Shown here in pieces: positions 11,042 to 54,451 of a stretch of 64,000 bases of DNA. The position numbers and the translations under genes were made by a program. Below the pieces are notes generated by a model. It made no database searches. It saw only the letters and a list, made by a program, of their open reading frames with translations, and was not told where the DNA came from. The number at the start of each line of letters is the position of its first letter. Within the stretch, counting starts at the first letter, position 1. The stretch is from Lentisphaerae bacterium GWF2_38_69. GTDB lineage: Bacteria > Verrucomicrobiota > Lentisphaeria > Victivallales > GWF2-38-69. The stretch lies in assembly GCA_001803205.1 (NCBI GenBank), contig MHBE01000042.1:10262-74261 (forward strand). The letters are read 5' to 3'.

Positions 11042-11042
11042 G

Positions 11043-39316: not shown

Positions 39317-42300
39317 ATGGCTAATTTTATTACAAATAGCGGGGTGAATGACCTTAAAAAGCGGATAGTTGAGCTTCTTAAGAGAAGCGATGAATTGAAG
39401 TTCTTAGTCGGATTCTTCTATTTTTCTGTAATAAGGGAGCTTTATGAGGGACTGAAATCAAATCCTGAAACCATAACAAAGATCCTTGTTGGTTTAAGCG
39501 TCGACCATTCCAACTTAGGGATGATTGAATTCTCGGAAAACGAGCAGCTATCAGATGAAGAAACGACATATAAGTTTTTTGAGTCAGTTAAAAAATCCTT
39601 GAACACAGAGAATTTTGATACGAAAGAGTTTTACGAACAGATACGGTTTTTCATCGAACTCATCCAGAAAGACAAGTTGATTATCCGTAAGACCTATAAA
39701 CCCAACCACTCCAAGTTATATCTTTTCAAACTTGAGCAAAGTCAGGTTGGCAAGAAACAATTGTTTATAACAGGCAGCAGCAACCTGACAAAGGCCGGGC
39801 TTTACACTCAGAATGAATTTAATGTGGAGATTGGCGACTATGGATTTGAAGATGCGGAAAAATATTTTGACGAACTTTGGGGAGATGCAGTAAAAATTAC
39901 GGAATTCAATGATACTAAAAAGAAGCTTGTTGAGGTGATTGAAAAGGAAACTCTTATTAAAGATATTTCGCCGTTTGAAGCTTTTTGCCTAGTCTTAAAA
40001 ACCTATTTGGACTCGTTTGAACAAAAAGATATAGGTGAATCTCTGAAAAAAACAATGGAAGAAAATGGCTACACTCCATATCTGTATCAGCTTGATGCGG
40101 TAAAACAGGCCTTAGCCATTATTGAAAACAATAACGGCGTAATAGTAGCTGATGTGGTAGGTTTGGGGAAAACTATTATTGCCTGCGCCATTGCCAAGCA
40201 GCTTAAAAAACGGGGCGTTATTATTTGCCCACCCGGTCTTGTCGGAGACAAAAATAAAAATTCAGGCTGGAAGAAATATACAGAGGAATTCGGGCTTTAT
40301 GAATGGGAGGTGCGTTCTCTTGGCGATCTGGAAAATACTTTGGAATTTGTTCAGAAATTCAGAGACATCGAGGCAGTGATTGTTGATGAGGCGCACCGTT
40401 TCAGGAACCAGGATACTCAGGATTATGAATTCCTTAAAAATATCTGCAGGGAAAAGCAGGTTATCTTGCTGACTGCCACTCCTTTTAACAATCGCCCAGG
40501 CGACATTCTTTCACTTCTCAAGCTATTTATTACGCCCAAAAAATCGTCAATCACTTTAGAAAGCAACCTTGTTGACCAGTTCCATGGATTTAAAGGCACT
40601 TTTGACCGGCTTGGTTACATAAAGAAATACTGGAAATCATCTGACAACTCAAAAAGAACCAAAGCCCAAACTTATTACAAGGCATTATTTGAAGAAGACA
40701 AAGTTGATTTAAAGAAAGTTTCCGGCAGGGCGCGCTATCTAGCCAGGCAAATCAGAGATGTTATTGAACCTGTGACTATCAGGCGAAACCGTTTGGATCT
40801 TCATAATAATCCTTTGTATAAAAATGAGGTAAAAGAGCTATCCAAGGTAGCTGACCCCATTGAATGGTTTTTTGAATTAAGCAAAAAACAATCTGAATTC
40901 TACTCTGAAATAATTGAGAGCTATTTTGGCGACCACGATGAGTGCGGACGCTTCAAGGGCGCTATATACCGCCCCTTTGAGTATGAAAAAGATATTAAAG
41001 GAAAGATAAACGAAGAAGATAACAGACAGCTCCAGCAGCAGCGAAACTTGTTTGATTTCATGCGTCGATTGCTGGTTAAGAGATTTGAAAGTTCTTTTGG
41101 CGCCTTTATGCAAAGCATTAGGAATTTCAAAAAGATTACTTTGAATGCGCTGACTTTCATAGAGAAGACCGGCGAATATATTCTGGATCGGGGACTGCTT
41201 GAGAAAATCTATGAACTCGGCGAGGATGAGATAGAAAAGTATCTTGCCGAATATGAGGATAAAATAAACAAAGGCGAGTATCCAAAGAATCATAAACGAT
41301 ACAAAATAAAGAACTTTGATTTGAGAGACGAGTTCCTTGCTCATATTCAATCCGACCTTGATTTATTTGATGAGATACTAGACAGGCTTTCTAATCTGGA
41401 TTTAGTAAAGAATGATCCTAAAACAGATTGCCTTATTGAAAATATAAAGAAGGAATTTGCAGGAAAACCGAACAAAGGCGAGCCAAGGCGAAAGATAATT
41501 ATTTTTACAGAATATGTTGATACTGCTAACTATATAGAAAAAGCTCTAAGGAATAATTTTGGCGACAGGATACTGGTGGTTGCCGGTGATTTGCCGCCAT
41601 CGAAGATTATTCAGATAAACAAAAACTTTGATGCTTCCTATTCTGAGCAGGAAAATTATTTCGACTTGCTGCTTGCTACAGATAAGATTTCCGAAGGGTT
41701 TAACCTTAATCGCGCCGGGATGGTTATAAATTACGATATCCCCTGGAATCCGGTGCGGGTTATCCAGAGGCTTGGCCGTATTAACCGTATCAGCAAAAAA
41801 GTTTTTGATGAACTTTATATCGTGAATTTCTTCCCTACCGAAAAGGGAGCGGAACTGGTGCAATCCCGCGAAATTGCAGCCAATAAAATGTTCCTTATCC
41901 ATAATGCACTGGGCGAAGATTCAAAGATATTCGATATAGACGAAGAACCGACTCCTGCAGGTTTATTCAGGCGCGTCCAACAGAATCCTGACGAACTGGA
42001 GGAAGAGAGTTTTTATACCAAAGCTTTCAAGGAATATTTGAGGATCAAAAAAGAACATCCTGCATTAATTGAAAACCTTAAAAACTATCCACCTCGAATA
42101 AAGGTGGCAAAGCTATACAGTGAAAATGAACTTCTGGTGTTCTTCAAAAAAGGCCGTTTATATGTAAGCGCTGCTAAGACTCAAACAGATAAAGTTGCAC
42201 CATACCAGACTGTGTTTGAAGATGTCTTTGAGAAAGTTGCCTGCAAGTCAGATGAAAAATCGCTTAATTGGAACACTGATAAATTCTGGCAGGCATATCA

Positions 42301-42637
42301 GACAATTCAAGATTTTAAAAATTATCGCCTACTCCCAACCAATGAACAAAGTTTAGAAATTAAAGCATTGAACAATCTTGCTTTTCTTATCAAAAACGCA
42401 AAAGAAGAACTGATGCCTCACAAGGATTTTCTGCGCACTCTTAAAGAAGATATATTAGGTTATGGTACCCTGGCTGATTATACACTGCGCAGGATTTCTA
42501 ATTTTAAAGAAGATTCCATCAAAGACCTTCAGGAACTAAAAGATGAATTGGGCGAAGATTATCTGATCAAAGAAAAGAATCACCTGAAAGACCAGAAAAA
42601 GGAAATAATTATAGCTATACAAAACCTTAAGGAATAA
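39317..42637 (+). CDS. PLD-family (single HKD motif) nuclease domain fused to an SNF2/DEAH-box helicase-translocase
   Basis: HKD motif NHSKLYLFK...FITGSSNLTKAG in the first 170 aa or so. Helicase motifs ADVVGLGKT (I), VIVDEAHRFRN (II), LLTATPFNNRPGD (III), and KIIIFTEY...LLATDKISEGFNL...INYDIPWNPVRVIQRLGRINRI (IV-VI). Uninterrupted 1106-aa frame. Confidence 0.85.
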   Translation: MANFITNSGVNDLKKRIVELLKRSDELKFLVGFFYFSVIRELYEGLKSNPETITKILVGLSVDHSNLGMIEFSENEQLSDEETTYKFFESVKKSLNTENFDTKEFYEQIRFFIELIQKDKLIIRKTYKPNHSKLYLFKLEQSQVGKKQLFITGSSNLTKAGLYTQNEFNVEIGDYGFEDAEKYFDELWGDAVKITEFNDTKKKLVEVIEKETLIKDISPFEAFCLVLKTYLDSFEQKDIGESLKKTMEENGYTPYLYQLDAVKQALAIIENNNGVIVADVVGLGKTIIACAIAKQLKKRGVIICPPGLVGDKNKNSGWKKYTEEFGLYEWEVRSLGDLENTLEFVQKFRDIEAVIVDEAHRFRNQDTQDYEFLKNICREKQVILLTATPFNNRPGDILSLLKLFITPKKSSITLESNLVDQFHGFKGTFDRLGYIKKYWKSSDNSKRTKAQTYYKALFEEDKVDLKKVSGRARYLARQIRDVIEPVTIRRNRLDLHNNPLYKNEVKELSKVADPIEWFFELSKKQSEFYSEIIESYFGDHDECGRFKGAIYRPFEYEKDIKGKINEEDNRQLQQQRNLFDFMRRLLVKRFESSFGAFMQSIRNFKKITLNALTFIEKTGEYILDRGLLEKIYELGEDEIEKYLAEYEDKINKGEYPKNHKRYKIKNFDLRDEFLAHIQSDLDLFDEILDRLSNLDLVKNDPKTDCLIENIKKEFAGKPNKGEPRRKIIIFTEYVDTANYIEKALRNNFGDRILVVAGDLPPSKIIQINKNFDASYSEQENYFDLLLATDKISEGFNLNRAGMVINYDIPWNPVRVIQRLGRINRISKKVFDELYIVNFFPTEKGAELVQSREIAANKMFLIHNALGEDSKIFDIDEEPTPAGLFRRVQQNPDELEEESFYTKAFKEYLRIKKEHPALIENLKNYPPRIKVAKLYSENELLVFFKKGRLYVSAAKTQTDKVAPYQTVFEDVFEKVACKSDEKSLNWNTDKFWQAYQTIQDFKNYRLLPTNEQSLEIKALNNLAFLIKNAKEELMPHKDFLRTLKEDILGYGTLADYTLRRISNFKEDSIKDLQELKDELGEDYLIKEKNHLKDQKKEIIIAIQNLKE

Positions 42638-42648
42638 TTTTGTGAGAT

Positions 42649-44118
42649 ATGAGCGAAGCAATTGAAAATATTCTGATTCTTCCTGAAGGTAAAACTCTGG
42701 AATTTAAAAGAGATATATCTTCCCCAAAGCCTATTTTGAAAACCTTAACTGCGTTTGCAAATACCGCAGGAGGAAAACTTATCATCGGCATAAGCGATTC
42801 AAAGACAGTTATCGGTGTCGAAAACCCTCTTGACGAAGAAGAAAAGCTCTGCAGTATAATTGCAGACTCTATTGCTCCAAAATTAGTTCCTAATGTTGAA
42901 TTAGTTACATATCAGGATAAGACTTTGCTGGTTGTTGAGGTATTTTTGAGTTCATTGAGACCTCATTATTTAAAAGCAGAAGGATCCGATAGAGGGGTTT
43001 ATGTCAGGCTTGGTTCTACTAACAGGTTGGCGGATAAGGAATTAATAGAAGAGCTTCGCCGTTCTGTAGATGGTGTTGCTTTTGATGAGATGCCTATGCC
43101 TGGTCTGAAAGTTGATAATCTGGATTTAAATGCCGCAACTGAATTATTCGGAAGGAATGATGAACTGACTGAAAAGGAACTGCTTACTCTAAAGATTCTG
43201 ACGAAATATCAAGGCAGGTTGATACCTACCAAAGGGGCTGTTCTGTTATTTGGAAAGGAAAGAATTTCACATTTTCCTGACGCATGGATACAATGCGGCC
43301 GTTTCATAGGAAAGGATAAATCAGAAATCTTCGACCATACCGATATCTATGATCCTCTTCCATTAGCAGTCGAAAGCATAATGCATTTCCTAAAGAAAAA
43401 TGCTATAAAAGGGGCAGATTTCTCAAAAACTCGCCGACAGGATGTCTGGAGTATCCCTCTGACAATCTTGAGAGAGGCTGTAATTAATGCCATTGTTCAT
43501 TCAGACTACTCCCAGAGAGGCGCTCCCATCAGGATTTCATTTTTCGACGACCGCATTGAGGTCGAAAATCCAGGAATCTTATTGCCTGGCATGACCATAG
43601 AAGATATGAAGCAAGGCATTTCCAGAATCCGTAATCCTGTTATAGCCCGTATCTTCCGCGAACTTAACTTCATTGAACAATGGGGAAGCGGAGTACGAAG
43701 AATATTTAAAGAAGCAAAAGAGAAAGGACTTCCCGAACCCCAGATAATAGAAATCGGCATGCGTTTGCGCTTTATAATTCCATTTGCTGAACTTCATACG
43801 ACACAAGTTGAAGCACAAGTTGAAGCACAAGTTGAAGCACAAGTTGACATAGATATACTTTCTGTATGCTCTTCTAATCCCATTTCCTCCGCTGAATTAG
43901 CAAAGGCTCTTGGTCATAAACAGTTAAGCGGCAACATTAGGAAAGCTATTCCCAGACTGAGAGAGACTGGCTTATTAGAATATACTATACCTGATAAACC
44001 CAGGAGCCGTAATCAGAAGTACAAACTGACTCAGAAAGGCCAGAACATGAAAATAGCAATAACTAACAGAGAGATAGCAAATGAGCGAGGCAAGACAGAT
44101 ATTAGAAACGATAATTGA
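42649..44118 (+). CDS. Schlafen/AlbA_2-type domain + HATPase_c_4-like domain + C-terminal winged-helix protein (often auto-annotated as RecG-like ATP-dependent DNA helicase or transcriptional regulator)
   Basis: LPEGKTLEFKRDISSPKPILKTLTAFANTAGGKLIIGI (AlbA_2), REAVINAIVHSDY...IRISFFDDRIEVENPG (HATPase-like), and C-terminal LRETGLLEYTIPDKPRSRNQKYKLTQKG (wHTH). Starts 11 nt after the upstream stop. Confidence 0.8.
   Translation: MSEAIENILILPEGKTLEFKRDISSPKPILKTLTAFANTAGGKLIIGISDSKTVIGVENPLDEEEKLCSIIADSIAPKLVPNVELVTYQDKTLLVVEVFLSSLRPHYLKAEGSDRGVYVRLGSTNRLADKELIEELRRSVDGVAFDEMPMPGLKVDNLDLNAATELFGRNDELTEKELLTLKILTKYQGRLIPTKGAVLLFGKERISHFPDAWIQCGRFIGKDKSEIFDHTDIYDPLPLAVESIMHFLKKNAIKGADFSKTRRQDVWSIPLTILREAVINAIVHSDYSQRGAPIRISFFDDRIEVENPGILLPGMTIEDMKQGISRIRNPVIARIFRELNFIEQWGSGVRRIFKEAKEKGLPEPQIIEIGMRLRFIIPFAELHTTQVEAQVEAQVEAQVDIDILSVCSSNPISSAELAKALGHKQLSGNIRKAIPRLRETGLLEYTIPDKPRSRNQKYKLTQKGQNMKIAITNREIANERGKTDIRNDN
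43804..43847 (+). repeat. 12-bp tandem repeat (caagttgaagca, about 3.7 copies) encoding (QVEA)n in an interdomain linker
   Basis: Read directly: caagttgaagca x3, then caagttga. Translated as QVEAQVEAQVEAQVD. Confidence 0.9.
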
Positions 44119-44276
44119 TGATTTTTCCATCGATAAGTTCAGTCGTTTTTTTCGTAAAAAGAGCCGTCAGTTTGCAGAGCGGACAGAAAATTATTCTCAC
44201 TACAACGATGAATGGTTTACAAGCTCTACGCCTGACTCCCGAAGAAATCCGCATCATCGAAGGCGTGGATAAATGA
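44081..44276 (+). pseudogene. Collapsed relic of a type IIG-like (Eco57I/TaqI-C-type) methyltransferase/restriction gene: N-terminal about 46 aa joined out of frame to the C-terminal about 22 aa
   Basis: The N-terminal piece MSEARQILETIIDDFSIDKFSRFFRKKSRQFAERTENYSHYNDEWF overlaps the upstream gene by 38 nt. A second frame (44208-44276) reads MNGLQALRLTPEEIRIIEGVDK*, the ...L(Y)GLTxEEIxIIEG tail typical of such enzymes. The family assignment is from memory only. Confidence 0.5.
44244..44263 (+). repeat. Left copy of a perfect 20-bp direct repeat gaaatccgcatcatcgaagg
   Basis: Identical 20-mer found at 46298-46317. The flanking bases differ. Confidence 0.9.
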
Positions 44277-44377
44277 TAATCAGATATTTAGATTGTATCG
44301 AATTAGAATTAAGGTTTAATAAAATATAAATTGATGTTGAATATATTATCTTTTGATAATTACAAACGGAGGAACAA

Positions 44378-45457
44378 ATGATATCAAAACTGTGTATCAG
44401 CCGATTTAAGGGCTTTGAACATCTAGAATTGTCAAAACTTACAAGAGTTACGCTACTAGGCGGCAAAAATAATGTCGGGAAGACTACTATTCTGGAAGCC
44501 CTTTTCATGTTTTTTGATAGGTTTAACCCTCAGATGATACTGCGTCAGTTTGCACTTAGGGGCGTAAATGTCATTCCGATGGAACCTGAGTCTATGTGGG
44601 CTCCAGTTTTTAATAACTACGAACTTACGAAGTCAATTATAATTTCCGGCTTAGTGGACAGGAAAGAAGAAAAAATGACAGTTAAATTCAATCCAAACTA
44701 TATTGCATCCATTCCTGCAGATATTCCCAAGTCGGGAGAAAGATCATTACAGATTAGAACCGACCAGAAGCCTGTCCCATCCTATGCTCTGGATATAACT
44801 TATGACAATAAGGAAATGAAAAACCAGACAGCACACCTTCTGATGAGCCAAAGCGGTATTGGAATACAAATTGACAATGCAAAAATGAAAAAAAACTATC
44901 AGATAACTTTTATAGGAGCAAGAGGCTCGGGGAATCCATCTGAAGACGCTGTTCGTTTTGGACAATTAGATATATTAGGCATGCAGAATAAGATACTGGA
45001 TTTGCTAAAAATTGTAGAACCTAACCTAAAAAGCCTCTCTTCAATATCAATGGGTGATACTTCTATGGTTTACGGAGATATCGGGCTTTCCAGGAAGATA
45101 CCAATATCATATATGGGTGATGGCGTGTCTCGCCTTTTAACGATTATTTTAGCTATTGCAACTGCAAAGAATGGCATTGTTGCTATTGATGAGTGCGAGA
45201 ACGGTATTCACTACTCGGTAATGCCAAAAGTATGGAAAGGAATTGTTCATGCCGCAAATGAGTTTAATTGTCAGGTCATAGCTACCACGCATAGCGATGA
45301 GTGTTTAAGAGCTGCTTATGAAGGGCTTTCAGGAGAATTTGAAAAAGATCTTAGTTTTACTCGAATTGACCGTCTTCCAAATAGACAAACATTAGCAAAA
45401 ACTTTTGACTATGAGATGCTCAGAGTTGCTTTTGAAACGAATATGGAGGTGCGTTGA
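44378..45457 (+). CDS. ABC/SMC-type (AAA_15/AAA_21-like) ATPase
   Basis: Walker A LLGGKNNVGKTTILEAL, Walker B IVAIDECENGIH, and ATTHS H-loop. Strong RBS (CGGAGGA). Confidence 0.8.
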   Translation: MISKLCISRFKGFEHLELSKLTRVTLLGGKNNVGKTTILEALFMFFDRFNPQMILRQFALRGVNVIPMEPESMWAPVFNNYELTKSIIISGLVDRKEEKMTVKFNPNYIASIPADIPKSGERSLQIRTDQKPVPSYALDITYDNKEMKNQTAHLLMSQSGIGIQIDNAKMKKNYQITFIGARGSGNPSEDAVRFGQLDILGMQNKILDLLKIVEPNLKSLSSISMGDTSMVYGDIGLSRKIPISYMGDGVSRLLTIILAIATAKNGIVAIDECENGIHYSVMPKVWKGIVHAANEFNCQVIATTHSDECLRAAYEGLSGEFEKDLSFTRIDRLPNRQTLAKTFDYEMLRVAFETNMEVR

Positions 45458-45458
45458 A

Positions 45459-46106
45459 ATGCCTCTTAATAAAGATAAAAAGACACGGATTGAGCGAAGC
45501 AAGCTTATTTTAGCCGAGGGCTTGGATGCATACTTTTTTTGCATATGGGCATGTAATACTTACAGACCGGAAACTATCCAAATTCTTGATTTTGGTGGTA
45601 TAGGTGACTTAAGCAAGTTCATTGCAGGAATAAAACTTCTGCCAAATTATGAACAGGTAGAAACAATCGTAATACTTCGGGATGCCGAAAAGGATGCTAA
45701 GTCAGCTATTGACAGCATAAAAAGCTCATTAAAAAAAGAAGGGTTTTCCATACCTAAAAAGCCTTGCGAATTTACTTCTTCCTCTCCGCGTATTGCCTAT
45801 ATGGTGTTACCAGGGTTTGGTAAAGATGTTGATGGGATGAATTATCTTCCTGCTGGCACTCTTGAAGATCTTTGTATCGAGATTGTTAGTAACGATCCGA
45901 TCATAGAATGCGTAGATCAATATCTGCAATGCGTGCAATCTAAAAACACTAAGCTGACACATCCTCACAAAGCAAAGCTCCATGCTTATCTTGCAGGTAA
46001 AAATGAGTATGTTGGATTGAAAATTGGAGAAGCTTCCAAAGCAGGAGTATGGAACTGGGAGCATGAAAGGCTTAAGCCCTTTAAAGAAGTAATAATGGCG
46101 ATGTAG
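45459..46106 (+). CDS. TOPRIM-like partner protein (DUF3226/DUF4276/RloB-like class; exact family unresolved)
   Basis: LILAEGLDAYFF (conserved Glu), IVILRDAEKD (acidic cluster) and GTLEDLCIE. The ATG at 45459 follows GGAGGTG and lies 1 nt after the ATPase stop. Confidence 0.6.
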   Translation: MPLNKDKKTRIERSKLILAEGLDAYFFCIWACNTYRPETIQILDFGGIGDLSKFIAGIKLLPNYEQVETIVILRDAEKDAKSAIDSIKSSLKKEGFSIPKKPCEFTSSSPRIAYMVLPGFGKDVDGMNYLPAGTLEDLCIEIVSNDPIIECVDQYLQCVQSKNTKLTHPHKAKLHAYLAGKNEYVGLKIGEASKAGVWNWEHERLKPFKEVIMAM

Positions 46107-46115
46107 AAGATGATT

Positions 46116-46181
46116 CTATCAACAATCTAGCGTGAAATAAATGGAGTTTTGTTGATAGTTGTCGATAGAAAATGTTGATAG
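46116..46181. promoter_or_regulatory. Cluster of four copies of a 9-bp motif TGT(T/C)GATAG (one inverted, three direct): candidate operator upstream of the AbiE module
   Basis: ctatcaaca at 46116-46124 (inverted). tgttgatag at 46150-46158, tgtcgatag at 46160-46168, tgttgatag at 46173-46181. Confidence 0.45.
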
Positions 46182-46330
46182 AACTAAAATTATCAGTAAT
46201 GGAAATGACAAAAAAGGCGTTTGATATTGTCAAACAAAAGGGATCAACTGCTCCAAATCCCGTTTCAATCACCATGGAAAGACAGAAATCTGTTCCTGAA
46301 ATCCGCATCATCGAAGGTACTTCAAAATGA
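46172..46330 (+). CDS. Small ORF (52 aa) translationally coupled (ATGA overlap) to the AbiEi-like gene; may instead be a leftover gene tail
   Basis: MLIELKLSVMEMTKKAFDIVKQKGSTAPNPVSITMERQKSVPEIRIIEGTSK*. Below the track's size cut-off. Contains the right copy of the 20-bp repeat. No clear RBS. Confidence 0.3.
   Translation: MLIELKLSVMEMTKKAFDIVKQKGSTAPNPVSITMERQKSVPEIRIIEGTSK
46298..46317 (+). repeat. Right copy of the perfect 20-bp direct repeat gaaatccgcatcatcgaagg
   Basis: Identical to 44244-44263. In both places it encodes EIRIIEG near a stop codon. Confidence 0.9.
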
Positions 46331-47052
46331 AGATAACAACATTAGAACATCTTAATAGTTTTATAAAAAAAGCGGGGCAATATTTCCGATATGCCGATGT
46401 GAAAGCATTTCTTATTTCACAAAATACCAAAGTGTCTGATTCTACACTTCAAACTTATCTGAGTAGGGAAATAGCTAAAAAAAACATTTTCAGCGCAGGG
46501 AAAGGATGGTATTCAAAGCAGGAAAAAGAATTTAGACTGAATGTCGAACCCATTCAGAAGATAATTGGACTGATAAAACAAAAGTTTCCTTTGCTGGAAA
46601 TTTCCTGTTGGAGCACTGAACAAATAAACTCATTCACTCACCATATGCTGGGAAAGCATATAACTTTTATCTATGTAGATATTGATGCGGTCAATTCAGT
46701 GCATGAATTTCTACTTGATAATGGATATAATTCTTATGATAATCCTACGAAAAAGGAAACACAAAAGCATTTCAGGGCAACAAACAACACTGTAGTTTTA
46801 AGAGCTTCTATAGCAAAGCAGCCGGAAGATCTAAGCGGAGCTTCTTCTGTTGAAAAATTACTCGTCGATCTAATTTTTGAAAACAGGAAATTACATATTA
46901 TGCCAGAAGATGAGATAGAGAACATTTTTGAAAGTATTTTAAAATATGAAAGAATTAATGTCTCTACTCTTTTTTCGTATGCCAAGAGGCGTGAAATGGA
47001 TATCCAAGAAATCAAGAAATTCCGGATTTTTAATTTATCCGGAAATCCTTGA
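46327..47052 (+). CDS. AbiEi-like antitoxin/transcriptional regulator (type IV TA / abortive infection)
   Basis: N-terminal wHTH-like FRYADVKAFL...LQTYLSREIAKKNIFSAGKGWYS (compare the AbiEi ...rG.Y motif). Sits directly upstream of an AbiEii-family gene. Confidence 0.6.
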   Translation: MKITTLEHLNSFIKKAGQYFRYADVKAFLISQNTKVSDSTLQTYLSREIAKKNIFSAGKGWYSKQEKEFRLNVEPIQKIIGLIKQKFPLLEISCWSTEQINSFTHHMLGKHITFIYVDIDAVNSVHEFLLDNGYNSYDNPTKKETQKHFRATNNTVVLRASIAKQPEDLSGASSVEKLLVDLIFENRKLHIMPEDEIENIFESILKYERINVSTLFSYAKRREMDIQEIKKFRIFNLSGNP

Positions 47053-47075
47053 TATAATCACCTATAAAGCTAGAT

Positions 47076-48155
47076 ATGATAAAGCGTAAATATTTTCAAG
47101 AAGAAACTATAAGAGCTAAACGAAATGAGTTAAAAGTCGCAGATCCCGGCTTATTTGAGAAAGCTATTCATGCCTTTGAACTATTAGGCTGCCTTGCGGA
47201 ATCAGGGTTGGATTTTATATTCAAGGGCGGCACTTCTCTTATGCTTCATATTCCCGAACCTCAGAGATTATCTATAGATATAGACATATTGTCAGGAGAA
47301 AAACCTGATAACCTCGACTCAAAGCTAAAAAGCATTAGCATGATGTATCCATTTTTAAGATGTTATGAAGACGAGAGAGGGCACAGAGGTTTGCCAAATC
47401 GCAGGCATTTTAAATTTTTCTATAACTCTCAGATATCTAAAAGGGAAGATAGTGTTCTTCTTGATATAGTTGAAGAAAATAAATGTCTTTTGCCTATACA
47501 GGAAAAGGTCATTAAATCCACTTTTTTTGAGACAGATAGAAATGTAAAAGTAAAAGTTCCAATACCCGAAGGGCTTCTTGGCGACAAGTTGTCGGCTTTT
47601 GCTCCCAATACTCTTGGAGTGCCTTTCTTAACAAAAAGCGGGCATCTCCATTCTCTTCAGGTAATCAAGCAGATGTTTGATATTGGACAGCTTTTTGATA
47701 TAGTCGCTAACTACAAAGAAGTATTTGCCGCCTATCTTGCTTCTTATAAACAAGAAAATGAATATAAAAAAGGTATTTATACACTAGAACAAGCTCTTGA
47801 TGATTCAGTAGAAACAGCTCTCGAGGTTTGCCGGATGGGGTTACGAGGACATAAGGCTTCAGATATTTCTGGTTATTTAGATGATGGCATTAGAAAACTT
47901 CAAAATCATTTAATATCAAATCCATTTAGACCAAATATTGAAGCGAAAATATCAGCATCAAAAGCATTTGCTCTATTTAAAATGATAAGAGGAAACTCTT
48001 TTGATTTAATGACAGAATACGGGTTATATATTCAGTCGGAAAAACAGATAGAATTGATAAGAAGTAATTCGATAGACTCAACTATCGACAGGCTGAAGAA
48101 AACTAATCCCGAAGCCTACTACTACTTGCTTCTTGGTATTTTATCTTCACAATAA
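47076..48155 (+). CDS. Nucleotidyltransferase AbiEii/AbiGii toxin family protein
   Basis: FIFKGGTSLMLHIPEPQRLSIDIDIL matches the DUF1814/AbiEii signature (KGGTAL...R.S.DiD). Confidence 0.8.
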   Translation: MIKRKYFQEETIRAKRNELKVADPGLFEKAIHAFELLGCLAESGLDFIFKGGTSLMLHIPEPQRLSIDIDILSGEKPDNLDSKLKSISMMYPFLRCYEDERGHRGLPNRRHFKFFYNSQISKREDSVLLDIVEENKCLLPIQEKVIKSTFFETDRNVKVKVPIPEGLLGDKLSAFAPNTLGVPFLTKSGHLHSLQVIKQMFDIGQLFDIVANYKEVFAAYLASYKQENEYKKGIYTLEQALDDSVETALEVCRMGLRGHKASDISGYLDDGIRKLQNHLISNPFRPNIEAKISASKAFALFKMIRGNSFDLMTEYGLYIQSEKQIELIRSNSIDSTIDRLKKTNPEAYYYLLLGILSSQ

Positions 48156-48718: not shown

Positions 48719-51700
48719 ATGAATTTATTGAGTTTAGGAAAAAATTATTTTAGAAATCTGATCAGGTTATTTTTTTTACTTCTAATTATTTATAATGCCA
48801 ATCTAATGGCTGCGGATGCCAAAGAATCGGGGGATGTGTGGTTGTCTGCCTATGAGATATACGAAAAAGCGGAAGGTTTTTATGAGAAAGAAGACTATTC
48901 ATCGGCGATGGTGTATTACGCTAGAGCTCTAACTAAATTTGAAGAACTCAAGGATAAATATCCTGACTGGAATTCAGAATTGGTTGAATACCGCATTACA
49001 TATTGTGAAGAAAGAGACACTCTGATAAGAAATAAACTTTCTAATAAGAAGAAAAGACTTCCCGAAGACGAGTTAGTCAAAGAAAATATTGACATGCATT
49101 CAAAGCTTGTCGAATATCAGGATGAGCTTTATTCCGAACAGAAAAAGTTAAAGGATGCTCTTAGAAAAATAGAAACAGGCAATAATGAAATAAGCAAAAA
49201 CTCTGCCGCCGCTGAAAAGCTAAGAGAAGTTCTCAAGGAAAAGATTGAACTCGAAAAAAAATATAATTTTCTGAATGAGCAGTACTCTTCCGAAGAGAAA
49301 AGCAAAGAAGTTCAGCAAATGCGTTCCAATCTTGAAAATCAGCGCTTTGAAATAGAAAACCTCAGACAAGAGAAAAGCAAAATGTCAGCTGACCTTTCTG
49401 CTCTCAATAAGAAATATCTGGAACTTTCAACACAAAAAGCTGATATCGATTATATGTACAAAAGCGCTTTAGGAAAAGCTAAAATGTCTGAAGAAGAAAA
49501 GCAGAAAGTAGCCGCAAAGCTTGATGCAGTTTCAGGAGAGCTTGAAAATGTCAGGACTGAAAAAGAAAGAATAGGTGAGCGAGCCAATAAACTTCAGGAA
49601 TTGCTTGAGAACATTAAGGAAACAGCACCGAAAGATACCGATTCACCGGACGAAATAGCCCTTAGAAATGAAAACGAGGCGTTGAAAAGACAGTTAAATG
49701 GATTTCAATCCGAAATTGATAAACTCTCTCAGATTCGGGATTCTTATAGTTCGCAGCTTAAAACAATTCAGGACTCATACGAAAGCTCTACGAAGAACAT
49801 CTCTGCCTTGAACAGCAGGTACCAGGCGCTTAATAGTGAATCTGAATTACTGAGAAATCAAATAAAAGGAAAAACCGAGGCTGAACTTTCTGCAACCCGG
49901 AAAATAAACGAACTTGCTTCCAGCCTGGCTGACAGCAAAGAGTCCTATAATCTTCTAAGCGATAAGTATAAAGCGCTTGAGAAAAATCAGGCCGTTCTAC
50001 CTGAACTTCAGCAGAAAAACCAGTCATTGGAGACACAAAAAAAAGATCTGGAAAATTTGCTCGAAAACTATCAGAAAAACCTGGAAAGTATCAAACAGGA
50101 AAGAGACTCACTGGAAATGTCCAGAAAAGCACTCGAAGAGGAAAAGAGCAACCTAATCAAAGATCATCTAGCATCCAAGAATGCAGATGATGAAAAATAC
50201 AAAGCCAGACTAACTGAGCTGGATGAAGCAACTGGCAAACTTAAAACCCTTGAAACGGCCAAACTTGATCAGCAGAAAAAGATTGAAGATTTGATAAACG
50301 AATCAGCAAAGAAAGAACAATCATATAATAAACTTTCAGAAGAGAACCTGAAACTAACAAACAAGGCTATGAGCGCGGATAAAATGTTGCGTCAGCTTCA
50401 GGAAGAGTACAATAAGAATTCCAGCGCTTACTCGGATTTAAGTCAGAAATTAAATCAGAATAATGTTAAGCTCCAGGAATATGAATCAGCAAGGGGAAAT
50501 CTGGAAAATCTACTCAAGAACACGACTGAAGCAAAAGAAAATGCAGAAAAGCTCAGCAAAGAACAGATTAAGAAATATGATGAGCTAAACAGCAAATTTA
50601 CGGAGAAAGAGAAGTCCATTGAGGACTTTCAGAATAGGTTGTCGCAAAAGGATGAAGAACTAAGTCAGTCACTAAAGAAAGCTGAAGAACTTAAGAACTT
50701 TTCAGCCAAGGATAAAGAAAAAATCGATTCCCTGCTTGATTCCATAGGTAATTTATCAAAGGACATTGAATCAAAGAATATCGACAAAAAAAACCTCGAA
50801 GAGAAACTTGCAACAGCAGCGGACAAGGCATCAGCAATGGAACTGCATAATAAAGCTCTTGAAGACAAATTCAGTGATTTGCTTAAAGGTTCAAAGAAAC
50901 TGAATGAAGAACGCGCTTCCGTAGAGAGAGAACGCAATGAAGTTATCAGGAAACTCGCAGAGGCAAATGAAAACTTGAAGAAATCGCGTTCGGACCTCGA
51001 TGAAAGTTCTGAAAAAAGGAAAAAGCATCTTGACGAGATAGCTTCTCTTAAGAGTTCACTTGAGGCCATTCAGGGAAAACTGGACGCTCTTTCCAATGAG
51101 AATGATCAATTGAGACAAAATCTTGACGACTCAGCTAAAAAAGCGGAGGCTTTTGAAGATGAAAAAACTCAATATTTAAATCAAATTAAAGAGCTTGTGG
51201 GTAATCTTGAAAATGCTGAAAAGAGAAATGAATCTTCAGAATCAATGCGTTCACTTACTGAAGAAAGATTTATATCTATTAATAACAGAGTAAACGACCT
51301 GGAAAAAATCCGCCAGGATCAGAGCGCTCTGATACAGAGCCTTCAGGGACAGTTAGAACAGGTCACTAAGGAATCTCAAACTGAAAATACCGCTGACGAC
51401 CTCTCTGAACTTACATCAGAACTTACCAGAGCAAATGAGAAAATCAGCAGTTACGAAACTCAAATCGCAGAAAGCTCTGAAAATATCCTTAAATATCAGT
51501 CAGAATACGCATCAATGAAGTTTGACCTGGATAAGGAAAGAAATGCCAGAGCTCAACTTCAAAATAGATTCGATGAAGCAAGTAGACAGCTTGACGCTAT
51601 GAAGAACCAACTAGACGCGCAAAAAGTTAATACAGACAAAATGATCTCAAACATGAATTCTATGAGTGAAAAATTAAGGCAGTCTGAAGAGAGTGCCGAA

Positions 51701-54451
51701 AAATTACAGAACGATTCACTTAAGGCTGCAGAGGATTTTGAACATGCCAAAAAGAATTATGAAGAGAAAGTTTCTTCTCTGAATTCCCAGATTGAAGCTC
51801 TTACAAATGAAAAATCAGAACTCATTTCAAGTACCGCGGAGAATGCAAAGCTGAACTCTGAACTCAATTCTGCAAACCTTAAAGTTGACGCTCTGGAAGG
51901 ACAGCAAAAAGAAAATATATCTAAAATAGAAAATCTTCTTGCTCAGCTAGATTCCGAAAGACAGCTTTCTTCAGGCAGCACTACAGCAAACAGTGAAATA
52001 GCTCAAGAGATAGACAGTTTTAAATCCCAATTGTTATCTTATGAGTCTGAAAAAAAATCAATTAAAAGCCAGATAGATAACCTAGCTGCCGCAGTTGATG
52101 AAAGAGATAAGAAAATAGAAGAACTTGAAACAAATCTTAAAGAATCCAATGATAAACTCACCTCAGCTTTAGATGAAAAAGAAAAACTCAAAGAGGCTTT
52201 CAATGGGACTTCTGAAGAATTATCTCAGGCTAAAAATGCTGTGACAGGCCTAAAAACAGAGCTTGCCCAAAATTCCTCTAACTTATCCGAACTCCAGAAG
52301 AACCTCGATAATTCAAAGAAAGCATATTCTGACAGCACGCAGAAAGTTAAAGAACTTTCACAGATTGTCCAGAAAGCAGAATCTGAAATAGAGGATTATA
52401 AGAAACAGAAATCTGATTATGACACGAAAGTCCAATCGCTTAACTCTGAACTATTATCTGCTGTTTCCAAAACCCAGGAGCTAGAGAAAAATGAAGATGT
52501 AATTCAGATGGAAAATGATACTCTGAGAACCCTTCTTAATACGCTTGAAGCAGACAATAACTCCAAGGACGGCAAAATCCGTGAATTAAGTGGAATAGTT
52601 GACTCTTCGCAAACGATAACTGATTCCCTGTCAGATGTAAAATTAAATCTAGAAGCACTCTCAAAAACTTCAGAAAAGGAACTTAAGGAGCTAAGAAGCA
52701 AGTATGAGAAACAGTTAGAGATTAATAATGCCCTTGTTAAAGAACTGGAATCTTATAGAAATAAAGGACAGCAACTGGATAAAGCCAATTCTGATATGAA
52801 TTCAGACCTTGCAAAAACAAAAAGAGATCTTAGCGAAACTCTATCTAAAAATGAACTGCTCAAGGAAAATCTTGATTCGATATCAGCCGAACTTGAAAAA
52901 GCTAAATCAGATTCTGCAAATTATCAGAGAGAGTATGACAAGCTTTCAGCTATATTCAATAGTATCCAGAAAGAACTTGAAGCTGCTAAAAATGAAAAAT
53001 CAGCTTTACAAGAAGAGTTTACAAAAGCAAAAAATGATTTTGCCGCACTTAGAAATCTGGAAACGGATAAGAAACTTACAAAGATTCAGCTTGAATACGA
53101 CCAGCTCTTTAAAAGAAATTCTGATACTGAAAATGAAGTGACTGAAACCAAAAATAAACTAAATTCTGTTTCCCTGAAACTTAAGGAATCTGAACTGCGC
53201 AAAAAAAACCTTGAAGAAATCAATGAATCTCTGCAGAAAAAACTTATTGATGCTAATTCCAAAAATCAGGAACTTTCCAGAGTATACTCAGAAAAAGAGA
53301 CTATCATTATCGAACTTAGTGACGAGCTTAAGACTCTAAAAGAGGATCTTAAGGATAAAACTTCTAAAAACCTCCTTCTTTCTGAAAATGTTGAAGCCCA
53401 AAAAGAAACTGTTTCTATCATTTCAAACGAAAATGCTGATCTCAAACAGCAAGTAACGGATGCGGAACTTAAAAATTCAGAGCTTCTCAAATCTTTTTAC
53501 GAGAAAGAAACCGCATCATTGGAACTCAAAGATGAAATCAGAAGTTTGAATGATGAACTTAGAACTGAAATATCAAAGAGCGCTGTTTTGGCTAATGAAC
53601 TAAATGATCAAAAAGAGCAAGTTTCGAAAACCCAGACTGAAAAAAGGCTTCTTCTTTCCAAAATAGCTTCTTATGAGACTCTCGTATCGGTTATTAAAAA
53701 AGAGAAAAATGACATTGAAGGCAAATATAAATTACTTCTGCAGAAAATTCAGGATTTTACCAGAAAGCTTAAAGAACCTGCAATAACAAATAAGGATGAC
53801 ACTGAGAAAATCGCTCAGTTGAGATCTGAAAATGTTTCTTTAAATCGTGAAATCCTAGCTCTTAATAGGAAAATACAGACACTCAAGTATAAAAAGATTA
53901 ATCCACAGGCAATACTGTCAAAAGAAGATAAAGAAAGACTCATGAAGCTTGTCAAGTCTGCCAGAATGTCAATAGCCCAAAATGACTTCAGCTCAGGGTA
54001 TAAGTATCTGGGTATGGCTGCAGATATTGCGCACGATAATTACCAGATACAGAAAAACGCAGGTCTCCTGGCCATGACCAACAGCGATTATTCTGCCGCC
54101 TTAAAATATCTTAGCAACGCTAAAAGCATTTCCATTAATGACGATGAAAATAATTCCATTCTACTTGCTTTGTGCCATATCTATATTGGAGACTATAGTA
54201 AGGCTTTGATAGAGTTTAATAATGCAGCTGAACTCGAAAAAAACACAAAACTTGGCAAAGCGCTGGATGCTTACTGTCTGGATCTGATTTCAGGAATGAA
54301 GAGCACGAAGAATTCAGAAAAATCGATGAAAGAGTTTATCCATTCCCCTGAAATGGCTTCGAAACTTTCTTCTATCTTGCTTCTCTGTAATCCTCCAAAA
54401 ATTCAGGAAGCTGAAAGATGGAACTCCGTGAGCCCTAAAGAAAATAATTGA
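48719..54451 (+). CDS. Giant (1910 aa) exported coiled-coil protein with TPR-like caps at both ends
   Basis: Signal-peptide-like LFFLLLIIYNANLMA/AD. N-terminal TPR-like YEKAEGFYEKEDYSSAMVYYARAL. About 1600 aa of uninterrupted E/K/L/Q/N/S-rich heptad-like sequence. C-terminal TPR-like AQNDFSSGYKYLGMAADI...GDYSKALIEFNNAAEL. Confidence 0.85.
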   Translation: MNLLSLGKNYFRNLIRLFFLLLIIYNANLMAADAKESGDVWLSAYEIYEKAEGFYEKEDYSSAMVYYARALTKFEELKDKYPDWNSELVEYRITYCEERDTLIRNKLSNKKKRLPEDELVKENIDMHSKLVEYQDELYSEQKKLKDALRKIETGNNEISKNSAAAEKLREVLKEKIELEKKYNFLNEQYSSEEKSKEVQQMRSNLENQRFEIENLRQEKSKMSADLSALNKKYLELSTQKADIDYMYKSALGKAKMSEEEKQKVAAKLDAVSGELENVRTEKERIGERANKLQELLENIKETAPKDTDSPDEIALRNENEALKRQLNGFQSEIDKLSQIRDSYSSQLKTIQDSYESSTKNISALNSRYQALNSESELLRNQIKGKTEAELSATRKINELASSLADSKESYNLLSDKYKALEKNQAVLPELQQKNQSLETQKKDLENLLENYQKNLESIKQERDSLEMSRKALEEEKSNLIKDHLASKNADDEKYKARLTELDEATGKLKTLETAKLDQQKKIEDLINESAKKEQSYNKLSEENLKLTNKAMSADKMLRQLQEEYNKNSSAYSDLSQKLNQNNVKLQEYESARGNLENLLKNTTEAKENAEKLSKEQIKKYDELNSKFTEKEKSIEDFQNRLSQKDEELSQSLKKAEELKNFSAKDKEKIDSLLDSIGNLSKDIESKNIDKKNLEEKLATAADKASAMELHNKALEDKFSDLLKGSKKLNEERASVERERNEVIRKLAEANENLKKSRSDLDESSEKRKKHLDEIASLKSSLEAIQGKLDALSNENDQLRQNLDDSAKKAEAFEDEKTQYLNQIKELVGNLENAEKRNESSESMRSLTEERFISINNRVNDLEKIRQDQSALIQSLQGQLEQVTKESQTENTADDLSELTSELTRANEKISSYETQIAESSENILKYQSEYASMKFDLDKERNARAQLQNRFDEASRQLDAMKNQLDAQKVNTDKMISNMNSMSEKLRQSEESAEKLQNDSLKAAEDFEHAKKNYEEKVSSLNSQIEALTNEKSELISSTAENAKLNSELNSANLKVDALEGQQKENISKIENLLAQLDSERQLSSGSTTANSEIAQEIDSFKSQLLSYESEKKSIKSQIDNLAAAVDERDKKIEELETNLKESNDKLTSALDEKEKLKEAFNGTSEELSQAKNAVTGLKTELAQNSSNLSELQKNLDNSKKAYSDSTQKVKELSQIVQKAESEIEDYKKQKSDYDTKVQSLNSELLSAVSKTQELEKNEDVIQMENDTLRTLLNTLEADNNSKDGKIRELSGIVDSSQTITDSLSDVKLNLEALSKTSEKELKELRSKYEKQLEINNALVKELESYRNKGQQLDKANSDMNSDLAKTKRDLSETLSKNELLKENLDSISAELEKAKSDSANYQREYDKLSAIFNSIQKELEAAKNEKSALQEEFTKAKNDFAALRNLETDKKLTKIQLEYDQLFKRNSDTENEVTETKNKLNSVSLKLKESELRKKNLEEINESLQKKLIDANSKNQELSRVYSEKETIIIELSDELKTLKEDLKDKTSKNLLLSENVEAQKETVSIISNENADLKQQVTDAELKNSELLKSFYEKETASLELKDEIRSLNDELRTEISKSAVLANELNDQKEQVSKTQTEKRLLLSKIASYETLVSVIKKEKNDIEGKYKLLLQKIQDFTRKLKEPAITNKDDTEKIAQLRSENVSLNREILALNRKIQTLKYKKINPQAILSKEDKERLMKLVKSARMSIAQNDFSSGYKYLGMAADIAHDNYQIQKNAGLLAMTNSDYSAALKYLSNAKSISINDDENNSILLALCHIYIGDYSKALIEFNNAAELEKNTKLGKALDAYCLDLISGMKSTKNSEKSMKEFIHSPEMASKLSSILLLCNPPKIQEAERWNSVSPKENN

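Follow-up and report, generated by a model that had tools for sequence, protein, structure and literature searches.

The window, by which we mean the whole stretch of 64,000 nucleotides that was analysed, contains two adjoining genes on the forward strand, one encoding an ABC ATPase of 359 amino acids (44378–45457) and the other a DUF3226 protein of 215 amino acids (45459–46106). The junction reads GGAGGTGCGT-TGA-A-ATG, in which the ATPase stop codon (45455–45457) is separated from the partner ATG at 45459 by a single base, exactly as the initial annotation had read it for a gene of about 215 amino acids. A Shine-Dalgarno sequence, GGAGG, lies within the end of the ATPase coding region (45445–45449), and the segment 45445–45461 has the layout of a translational-coupling junction. 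Among relatives, the two genes either overlap, by up to 4 nt, or are set apart by a few bases. The pair is preceded by an AT-rich leader (44277–44377, forward strand) that includes sigma-70-like hexamers at 44331–44360 and a GGAGG Shine-Dalgarno sequence at 44368–44372, followed by the ATG of the ATPase. These leader elements are consensus matches only, and promoter-like sites showed no enrichment over shuffled sequences. Searches of the window for tRNA genes and Rfam families returned none.

The upstream protein carries the three motifs by which it had been recognized as an ATPase, namely GKNNVGKTT (residues 29–37), IDECENGIH (270–278) and ATTHS (302–306). The nucleotide-binding elements comprise a Walker A motif (28–36), the Q-loop glutamine Q57, an MGDG signature (246–249), the Walker B residues DE (271–272), a D-loop ENGIH (274–278) and the H-loop histidine H305. 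The catalytic motifs are invariant in 45 homologues, with no variation at any of G28, G29, N31, N32, G34, K35, G247, G249, D271, E272, E274, G276, H278 and H305. The Pfam families AAA_15 (E = 1.4e-26) and AAA_21 (1.6e-18) were both detected. Among the PADLOC models, PDC-M38A matches residues 1–359 over profile positions 1–383 of 383 (8.2e-56), and AbiLi (PDLC02336) also matches over its full length (2.5e-50). The AF2 model of the ATPase (pLDDT 88) contains a short helical pair at residues 187–210 alone and no long coiled coil. A Foldseek search with this model revealed Ts OLD (6p74; E = 1.6e-12) as the nearest structure, with PtuA, retron Eco8, GajA and the SMC/Rad50 heads also among the top matches. 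The N-terminus gives weak matches to RecF, Rad50 and SMC models; that to NCBIfam recF (TIGR00611) covers only the N-terminal 45 residues and reaches 25.8 bits, where the cut-off is 172.

The downstream protein belongs to the Pfam family DUF3226 (PF11536), which it matches with an E-value of 6.3e-22 and 78.8 bits (cut-off 27) over residues 15–211 and profile positions 2–202 of 208. The same family was found in 30 of 30 partner relatives in a Pfam scan. The initial annotation had placed the partner with DUF3226, DUF4276 or RloB rather than with DUF4435 or HNH, and the profile search it proposed bears this out, with AAA_15 and AAA_21 on the ATPase and DUF3226 on the partner. Zero DUF4435 matches were obtained with Pfam for the window protein and 29 relatives at E-values up to 10, a range in which the HMMER filters remove most hits weaker than about 0.1, and the Pfam scan gave neither HNH nor UvrD matches for the partner. 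PDB sequence and profile searches returned nothing for the partner, and BFVD nothing significant. The PADLOC model PDC-M38B matches residues 47–210 with about 75% coverage (5e-7), which is weak for the window member; it is matched by 19 of the 30 partner relatives, with E-values down to 5.7e-24. AbiLii (PDLC02338) matches at 8.1e-7 over profile positions 24–102 of 125 alone, and 6 of 30 relatives match it.

The motifs pointed out earlier in the partner, LAEG (E20), LRDAEKD (R74, D75, A76 and E77) and GTLEDLC (G133, E136 and D137), are present and are invariant or nearly so in 30–32 homologues. E20, G21, D75, G133 and E136 are conserved in all 32 sequences, D23 and K171 in 31, and E77 in 30. 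In 30 of the 32 sequences, DxE stands as the second acidic motif instead of the canonical DxD, which is found in the Klebsiella plasmid copy. The TOPRIM-like character proposed for this protein is supported by its AF2 model (pLDDT 94), which displays a β-α-β-α-β-α-β core followed by helices, with strand β1 (residues 15–20) ending at E20 and strand β3 (69–75) ending at D75-A-E77. Its best Foldseek matches in the PDB are the C-terminal catalytic regions of class 2 OLD proteins (6njx, 6njv and 6nk8); the similarity is weak, with a probability of 0.99 for 6njx, a best E-value of 3e-3, TM-scores of 0.44–0.54 and no match at E ≤ 1e-3. Of 30 members of the partner family, 11 also give matches to the Pfam family OLD-like_TOPRIM (best E = 2.9e-4). 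In Bp OLD, metal site A is formed by E400, D455 and D457 and metal site B by E404, T506 and E508, with K562 in addition (PMC6755086). The conserved residues of the partner run in the same order as E400, E404, D455, D457, T506, E508 and K562 of this enzyme, an equivalence defined by order, spacing and secondary structure only. E20, D23, D75, E77, T134, E136 and K171 are the candidate metal-binding or catalytic residues, and the protein is predicted to be a two-metal nuclease composed of a TOPRIM and a helical domain.

The two genes are strictly paired. The ATPase lies directly upstream of the DUF3226 gene in 36 of 38 genome loci, across unrelated phyla, and no third gene is conserved beside the pair in these loci; in one locus (L018) the 759 nt that could be read upstream of DUF3226 contain no ATPase. 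The pairwise identities of the two proteins are correlated (r = 0.93; Mantel 0/2000), and the two proteins co-evolve. The DUF3226 branch comprises 4336 clusters at 50% identity, and the distribution of the pair over phyla is patchy; the copies in L027, L031 and L038 are degraded. A search of 50,697 phage records and 72,556 plasmid records by tblastn with the partner returned nothing; the plasmid copies of the partner are too divergent, and were found through the ATPase. The pair constitutes the sole non-replication cargo of about 139 small, non-mobilisable ColE1 plasmids of Klebsiella (pKpn114-like, 4.2 kb), and another copy resides on an Acinetobacter plasmid. With either protein as query, tblastn found no Lactococcus plasmid. 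Phage and viral collections hardly contain the pair, with a single occurrence in 2.9 million viral contigs.

In the window, the pair sits in a defence island next to the remains of a restriction-modification (R-M) gene. Upstream, on the same strand, lie a PLD(HKD)+SNF2 helicase of 1106 amino acids (39317–42637) and a protein of 489 amino acids that combines Schlafen/AlbA_2, HATPase_c_4 and winged-helix regions (42649–44118). The helicase is homologous to the one that, together with a type IIG gene, precedes the pair in two relatives (L001 and L004); its assignment to MANTIS/Gao_RL was set aside, since that is a four-gene system. Directly downstream, also on the forward strand, is an AbiEi (DUF6577)/AbiEii type IV toxin–antitoxin pair (46327–48155), and the same order is conserved in L022. 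The closest relatives are nested in type I or type IIG R-M loci, with the pair placed between type I hsdM and hsdR in L002, and following the HKD-SNF2 helicase and type IIG gene in L001 and L004. Elsewhere the pair adjoins PDC-S02 and hsdR (L021) or HigBA (L012). The expectation that such pairs lie near defence genes is borne out by the R-M, AbiE and PDC-S02 neighbours of relatives, but the majority of the flanking genes over the 38 loci are non-defence genes. There is a genuine link to defence genes, but a partial one, because many relatives sit amid housekeeping genes.

The likeliest function of the pair is that of an ATPase-controlled TOPRIM nuclease in abortive-infection or toxin–antitoxin-like defence. 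We consider it probable that the two genes form a self-contained anti-phage module of the split-OLD type, with the ATPase as sensor and regulator and the DUF3226 protein as toxic nuclease effector. For this module we infer a physical complex, a trigger, a substrate, toxicity and a phage phenotype along the following lines. By analogy with PARIS and P2 OLD, an oligomer of the ATPase (44378–45457) would hold the translationally coupled two-metal nuclease (45459–46106) in an inactive state. A phage-derived signal, read by the ATPase through ATP binding or hydrolysis, would then free or open the nuclease, which would cut host nucleic acid, with tRNA a somewhat likelier target than DNA, and growth would stop. 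The module reading draws on the identity of both domains, the fold of the partner, the conserved catalytic residues, the strict pairing with co-evolution, and the mobile and defence-linked settings of the pair. Against it stand the weak structural match to OLD, the prevalence of DxE over DxD, the mostly non-defence flanking genes, the near absence of the pair from viral collections, the L018 locus and the study in which HEC-01 showed no defence.

The pair could also be read as primarily an addiction or stabilisation module for mobile DNA, with the DUF3226 protein acting as toxin and the ATPase as antitoxin, whose main role would be the maintenance of small plasmids and islands. On the Klebsiella plasmids the pair accompanies nothing but replication functions, its neighbours elsewhere include RelE/ParE (on the Acinetobacter plasmid), HigBA (L012) and AbiE (in the window and in L022), and PARIS itself behaves as a toxin–antitoxin pair (review). 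We regard addiction as the main role as unlikely, given that the closest relatives are nested in R-M loci and that the related OLD, PARIS and AbiL are phage-defence systems. The addiction and anti-phage roles are compatible, and the two readings therefore differ in emphasis more than they constitute true alternatives.

On either side of the cassette stands a copy of a perfect 20-nt direct repeat, GAAATCCGCATCATCGAAGG, the left one at 44244–44263 and the right one at 46298–46317, both on the forward strand. The repeat is the sequence with which a type IIG R-M gene ends at its 3' side. The left copy lies inside a 3' remnant of such a gene (44217–44276) that ends in LTPEEIRIIEGVDK and a stop codon. 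The right copy lies in a second remnant (46256–46330, forward strand), which reads NPVSITMERQKSVPEIRIIEGTSK up to a stop codon that overlaps the abiEi ATG, and which can be compared with the ending in L099, HPVSIAMERQKSVPEIRIIEGLGK and stop. A further comparison, L073, is of the Eco57I/N6_Mtase/TaqI_C type, in support of the type IIG identity of the remnants. Further upstream, the segment 44081–44239 (forward strand) is the N-terminal remnant of a longer gene and forms the start of a 63-aa open reading frame (44081–44272). This frame shares 65% identity with the first 60 amino acids of the 113-aa fragment P0307; no family was found for it, nor did P0307 yield a match in Pfam, PADLOC, the PDB or the plasmids. 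The frame may conceivably encode the N-terminal part of a type IIG methyltransferase. Two 52-aa open reading frames (44118–44276 and 46172–46330) were considered as a small-protein family and rejected, since their common part is limited to the last 10 residues; these residues are the type IIG C-terminus, and the frames are therefore better read as gene remnants.

In the window and about 10 relatives, the pair is enclosed by direct repeats of 20–330 nt with identities of 84–100%. Such flanking duplications occur more often than in shifted controls (6 of 23 versus 8 of 438; p = 1.8e-5), and enclose neither an integrase nor a transposase. The repeats of L014, which are dispersed hairpin repeats, are probably not insertion scars. 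We tentatively propose, with considerable doubt, that the pair is an integrase-free mobile defence cassette that spreads by insertion-duplication at short homologies, notably at the conserved type IIG 3' end (E[IV]RIIEG and stop), at which one defence cassette after another would be captured and stacked. If general, duplications of R-M gene ends would explain the nesting of defence genes inside R-M systems. In a bolder form of this proposal, the TOPRIM nuclease and the ATPase may themselves stimulate such recombination. The repeats would also be expected if the pair were a selfish element that drives its own movement, the nuclease and ATPase processing DNA for insertion with target duplication, and the use of a non-defence target, the SBP_bac_5 gene in L024, fits that idea. 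We nevertheless hold self-movement to be very unlikely. The repeat-bounded unit at times holds extra genes, DUF4238 in L001 and HigBA in L012, for which general host recombination is a better fit than a cassette-encoded function, and the range of repeat identities is that expected from homologous (Campbell-type) recombination. To our knowledge, no TOPRIM/OLD-type protein acts as a transposase. A housekeeping role in DNA repair or recombination, analogous to that of RecF (an SMC-like ATPase) and RecR (a TOPRIM protein), would account for the weak RecF, Rad50 and SMC matches of the ATPase N-terminus and for the TOPRIM-like fold of the partner, but is most improbable in view of the recF score far under its cut-off, the patchy distribution, the varying neighbours, the plasmid and pseudogenised copies, the insertion scars at the flanks and the placement of the nearest relatives of the Lentisphaeria gene in Desulfuromonadales and Brocadiaceae MAGs.

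Modules that combine an ABC ATPase with a TOPRIM protein, such as OLD, Gabija, PARIS and AbiL, are among the most widespread bacterial immune architectures. To these, the present analysis adds a confident fold for the DUF3226 partner and a concrete set of residues in it (E20, D23, D75, E77, T134, E136 and K171), evidence for the mobility of the cassette, and a tractable natural model in the 4.2-kb Klebsiella plasmids. The family has already been catalogued as the phage defence candidate PDC-M38 of PADLOC (Payne et al., bioRxiv 10.1101/2024.01.29.577857), which was derived by "guilt-by-embedding" from cassettes lying within loci of the BREX, DISARM or type I R-M kind. PDC-M38 provides the best PADLOC model for both window proteins and shares the two-gene layout, and nothing substantive distinguishes it from the window pair; the occurrence of relatives in R-M loci corresponds to the way in which these candidates were defined. 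It is a catalogue entry only, and its B model is matched weakly by the window member. The literature that was searched holds no mention of DUF3226, PF11536 or PDC-M38, in agreement with the initial annotation, which was aware of no clear experimental characterisation of such a pair.

The kinship to split-OLD, AbiL and PARIS that had been suggested from the sequence stands, PDC-M38 being a relative of AbiL and PARIS, but PARIS, Septu and Gabija do not include the pair, which shares with these three systems only the general ATPase-plus-nuclease layout. Septu and Gabija are excluded because the partner is a DUF3226 protein, neither an HNH protein (PtuB) nor a UvrD-like helicase (GajB), and because there is no conserved third gene. 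[quoted passage not shown] These matches are partial and far under the family cut-offs, the partner has no HEC-01B match, and mad4 is touched by only 1 of 30 relatives. HEC-01, as a related pair, showed no defence in one study and defence in another.

PARIS represents the best-understood mechanistic model for the window pair, with which it shares a split arrangement of ABC ATPase and TOPRIM effector and a toxin–antitoxin-like logic. In PARIS, a hexamer of AriA sequesters AriB, which is freed by a trigger and cuts tRNA-Lys (PMC11464382). AriB is a DUF4435 protein, whereas the window partner gave no DUF4435 match in the Pfam scan, and the pair is excluded from PARIS on this ground. AriA models match the window ATPase partly (E = 9.9e-27, best stretch 205–309), AriA being a protein of about 55 kDa with coiled-coil insertions where the 359-aa ATPase has the short helical pair at 187–210. 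PARIS is also common on phage satellites, in contrast to the single viral contig that carries a window-type pair.

[quoted passage not shown] The AlphaFold model of AbiLii superimposes on OLD 6NJV (review), and AbiLii and the window partner match the same PDB family; the AbiLii model, however, covers the window partner just partly. The superimposition of AbiLi on PARIS-i extends over 212 out of 453 amino acids (review), from which AbiLi appears longer than the 359-aa window ATPase. AbiL-type systems have been annotated with RloB or DUF4276, not with DUF3226 (Burman et al.).

The OLD proteins (P2 Old and Ts OLD of class 1; GajA, Bp and Xcc of class 2) are single polypeptides, whereas the halves of the window pair are separate genes, and class 2 enzymes work with a UvrD-like helicase, of which none is conserved near window-type pairs. 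P2 OLD acts as a tRNase. The fold of the window ATPase, with its motifs intact, is nearest to class 1 Ts OLD, and that of the partner to the class 2 TOPRIM and helical catalytic region, with the acidic residues and the lysine in the same order.

The ATPase ORF (44378–45457) encodes 359 aa on the + strand, and the partner ORF, on the same strand, runs from an ATG at 45459 to 46106 and encodes 215 aa. At the junction (...ATGGAGGTGCGT TGA A ATG...), the stop codon at 45455–45457 is separated from the partner start by a single base, and the GGAGG ribosome-binding site of the partner lies within the final codons of the ATPase gene. The latter has its own GGAGG 6 bases 5' of its ATG and is preceded by an AT-rich gap of 260 nt. 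The two-gene arrangement reported in the initial annotation, a 359-aa ATPase with a partner of about 215 aa starting 1 nt after its stop, is confirmed; the motifs quoted there were all found in place, and are invariant or nearly so in the homologue alignments.

Across 185,579 species genomes scanned, 38 loci with a DUF3226 relative were recovered, and in 36 of these an ATPase relative lies immediately upstream. One exception (L021) is truncated by the contig end, and no ATPase was found within the 759 nt of upstream sequence present in another locus (L018). At the junctions, the two genes overlap by up to 4 nt or are separated by at most a few bases; three loci (L027, L031 and L038) hold degraded copies, and no conserved third gene surrounds the pair in the related loci. 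The pairwise identities of ATPases and partners correlate strongly across 32 pairs (r = 0.93; Mantel, 0 of 2000), which indicates joint inheritance and joint divergence of the two genes. The partner family is large, comprising 4336 clusters at 50% identity (E <= 1e-3), with hosts scattered among the Desulfobacterota, Nitrospirota, Brocadiaceae, Negativicutes, Synergistota, Bacteroidota, Spirochaetia and Gammaproteobacteria, in addition to the Lentisphaeria MAG of the window.

The ATPase is of the ABC type (Pfam AAA_15, 1.4e-26; AAA_21, 1.6e-18). It matches end to end the PADLOC model PDC-M38A (8.2e-56) and one AbiLi model (2.5e-50), and only partially the AriA, GajA, PtuA, HEC-01A and MAD3 models. 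The PDC systems are 145 candidates defined by nesting in BREX, DISARM or type I R-M loci (bioRxiv 10.1101/2024.01.29.577857). The nearest fold to the structure model (pLDDT 88) is Thermus OLD (6p74, 1.6e-12), followed by PtuA, retron Eco8, GajA and SMC/Rad50 heads. The model has no long coiled coil, just a short helical pair at residues 187–210, where a coiled coil would emerge. Because all catalytic motifs are invariant in the homologue alignment, the ATPase is very probably active.

Pfam places the partner, as a full-length member, in DUF3226 (6.3e-22, 78.8 bits versus a cut-off of 27). It also matches PDC-M38B (5e-7) and, partially, AbiLii (8e-7), models that are matched by 19 (down to 6e-24) and 6 of 30 relatives, respectively. 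No NCBIfam model matches the partner, and no mention of DUF3226, PF11536 or PDC-M38 was found in the literature searched. An AlphaFold2 model built with 30 homologues (mean pLDDT 94) displays four strands alternating with helices (β1, residues 15–20; β2, 40–46; β3, 69–75; β4, 111–117) and, after this core, a helical domain at residues 135–214. The top PDB matches in Foldseek are the C-terminal TOPRIM and helical catalytic regions of class 2 OLD nucleases from Xanthomonas and Burkholderia (6njx, 6njw, 6njv and 6nk8; probability 0.89–0.99, TM-scores 0.42–0.54), with weak E-values of 3e-3 to 0.1; next in rank are retron Eco2 and topoisomerase II. Pfam OLD-like_TOPRIM is touched by 11 of the 30 relatives (best E = 2.9e-4). 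The Pfam assignment and the nearest folds bear out the earlier proposal of a TOPRIM-like partner resembling DUF3226, DUF4276 or RloB.

The Bp OLD site comprises E400, D455 and D457 for metal A, E404, T506 and E508 for metal B, and K562 from the helical domain (PMC6755086). The conserved residues of the partner are E20 at the end of β1 (32/32), D23 three residues further (31/32), D75-x-E77 at the end of β3 (32/32 and 30/32; the Klebsiella copy has DxD), T134-x-E136 at the start of the first helix past β4 (27/32 and 32/32), and K171 in the helical domain (31/32). Their order, spacing and secondary-structure positions agree with those of the Bp OLD site, from which we infer a one-to-one equivalence.

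The best-supported reading of the pair is a split OLD-type module, in which the ATPase would sense infection and control the predicted DUF3226 TOPRIM nuclease, whose activity would arrest the cell. In PARIS, AriB is held by an AriA hexamer, is released upon Ocr binding, and tRNA-Lys is cleaved (PMC11464382), and the P2 OLD tetramer opens before tRNA cleavage (bioRxiv 10.64898/2026.07.10.737580); class 2 OLD and Gabija cleave DNA (PMC10568477). Purely as an analogy, PARIS, the one split system whose mechanism was considered here, and P2 OLD slightly favour tRNA over DNA as the substrate.

On the + strand of the window, the pair is preceded by genes for a PLD+SNF2 helicase and then an AlbA_2/Schlafen protein, and is followed by AbiEi/AbiEii. 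AbiEi/AbiEii likewise follow the pair in L022. In other related loci the pair is found with type I hsdM on one side and hsdR on the other (L002), after a homologous HKD-SNF2 helicase, PDC-S02, a type IIG enzyme and DUF4238 (L001), after helicase fragments and a type IIG enzyme (L004), or upstream of PDC-S02 and hsdR (L021). Several relatives thus have R-M or AbiE neighbours, but numerous other loci have ordinary ones, e.g., glycosyltransferases and response regulators, and the association with defence genes is therefore real but partial.

At 39317–44118, a gap of 12 nt separates the PLD(HKD)+SNF2 helicase from the downstream Schlafen/AlbA_2-HATPase_c_4-wHTH protein, whose (VEAQ)n stretch is encoded by tandem repeats of a 12-nt unit (CACAAGTTGAAG; 43802–43847). 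Each of the homologous helicases in L001 and L004 has an intact type IIG methyltransferase as its partner. Between helicase and pair, the window has remnants and no intact type IIG gene; judged from this region, its helicase may be an orphan. Directly after the island, 48719–54451, a region of marked AT skew (0.25–0.40), encodes a strongly coiled-coil protein of 1910 aa with a signal-like N-terminus and a TPR-like C-terminus.

Plasmid matches comprise 139 Klebsiella records, most of them non-mobilisable ColE1 plasmids of 4.2 kb (e.g., pKpn114), whose sole contents are Rop, an HTH protein and the ATPase-DUF3226 pair. The proteins of the Klebsiella pair (plasmids p48896_6 and pKpn114) are 29% and 23% identical to those of the window. 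pKpn114 is among the small ColE1-type Klebsiella plasmids, with no resistance gene recorded (PMC6764390). In an Acinetobacter plasmid the pair adjoins RelE, and among 2.9 million viral contigs a single one carries the pair. As cargo of small plasmids, the pair could also be a plasmid or island addiction module, which is compatible with a split OLD-type module; the small Klebsiella plasmids provide a ready natural model for function tests.

Less expected than the family assignment is a pattern of putative insertion scars. A perfect 20-nt direct repeat (GAAATCCGCATCATCGAAGG) at 44244–44263 and 46298–46317, with 0.01 matches expected by chance, exactly brackets the cassette at a spacing of 2054 nt, and both copies encode, in frame, ...PE(E)IRIIEG..K and a stop. 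A metagenome scan returned 76 hits, a subset of which, upon ORF extraction, proved to lie at the C-termini of type IIG restriction-methyltransferases of ~1160–1335 aa (e.g., the enzyme of contig L073, with Eco57I, N6_Mtase and TaqI_C domains). Since these C-termini carry the motif, the stretches holding the left (44217–44276) and right (46256–46330) copies are read as 3' remnants of type IIG genes, so that the pair, and then AbiE, would each lie just past an R-M 3'-end remnant. A putative N-terminal remnant of a longer gene (44081–44239) is contained in a 63-aa ORF (44081–44272) that overlaps the 3' end of the AlbA_2 gene. Over its first ~53 residues this ORF shares 65% identity with the beginning of a metagenomic protein fragment of 113 aa (P0307); the similarity ends there, as if the ORF were the N-terminal stub of a larger gene that has been deleted. 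On metagenome contigs, the genes that begin at or overlap the stop of type IIG enzymes ending E[IV]RIIEG (L053, L050, L056, L062, L099, L048 and L090) are mostly defence candidates, namely PDC-S02, PDC-S60, PDC-S13 and ABC ATPases of 560–710 aa.

Flanking direct repeats of 27–330 nt (84–100% identity), copies of the neighbouring gene's end, occur in about one-third of the related loci. In L001, the 3' end of the intact type IIG gene recurs just past the pair as a copy of 88 nt with 97.7% identity (7745–7832 / 10706–10793). In L042, an independent contig whose cassette is 85% identical, the type IIG C-terminal motif likewise lies downstream. The repeats are of 155 nt (100%) in L012 (7086–7240 / 10763–10917), of 247 + 87 nt from the 5' part of an SBP gene in L024 (8131–8457 / 10808–11370), and lie at 8320–8405 / 10825–10912 in L037; these repeats are lineage-specific, as are those in L003, L023 and L011. 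They are enriched at the pair (6/23 versus 8/438 for shifted control placements, p = 1.8e-5). Pattern and enrichment suggest insertion-duplication by a cassette that carries no integrase, most simply by single-crossover integration of a circular cassette carrying a copy of its target. Flanking repeats would also suit a self-mobilising element, but the repeat-bounded units sometimes include extra small genes, which speaks against it. If insertion-duplication is true, R-M gene ends would be capture sites. Genes directly downstream of motif-bearing type IIG genes match PADLOC models in seven of nine cases, and the 3' end of this type IIG family seems to be a hotspot at which the defence cargo varies.

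A RecF/RecR-like repair pair is argued against by scores, distribution and mobility, all of which are contrary to it. By its sequence, the pair belongs to DUF3226 and to the PDC-M38 candidate family. Of the systems with which the initial annotation saw a shared layout (PARIS, AbiL, Septu and Gabija), AbiL is a distant relative of the pair. The pair does not belong to PARIS, whose defining DUF4435 AriB is missing, the partner being DUF3226, nor to Gabija and Septu, whose defining partners are absent; the likeness to PARIS and OLD would be one of mode of action, by analogy. With DUF3226/PDC-M38 membership and without the hallmarks of PARIS, Gabija or Septu, the pair is therefore a further member of an established kind of system, in a family already catalogued as a candidate.
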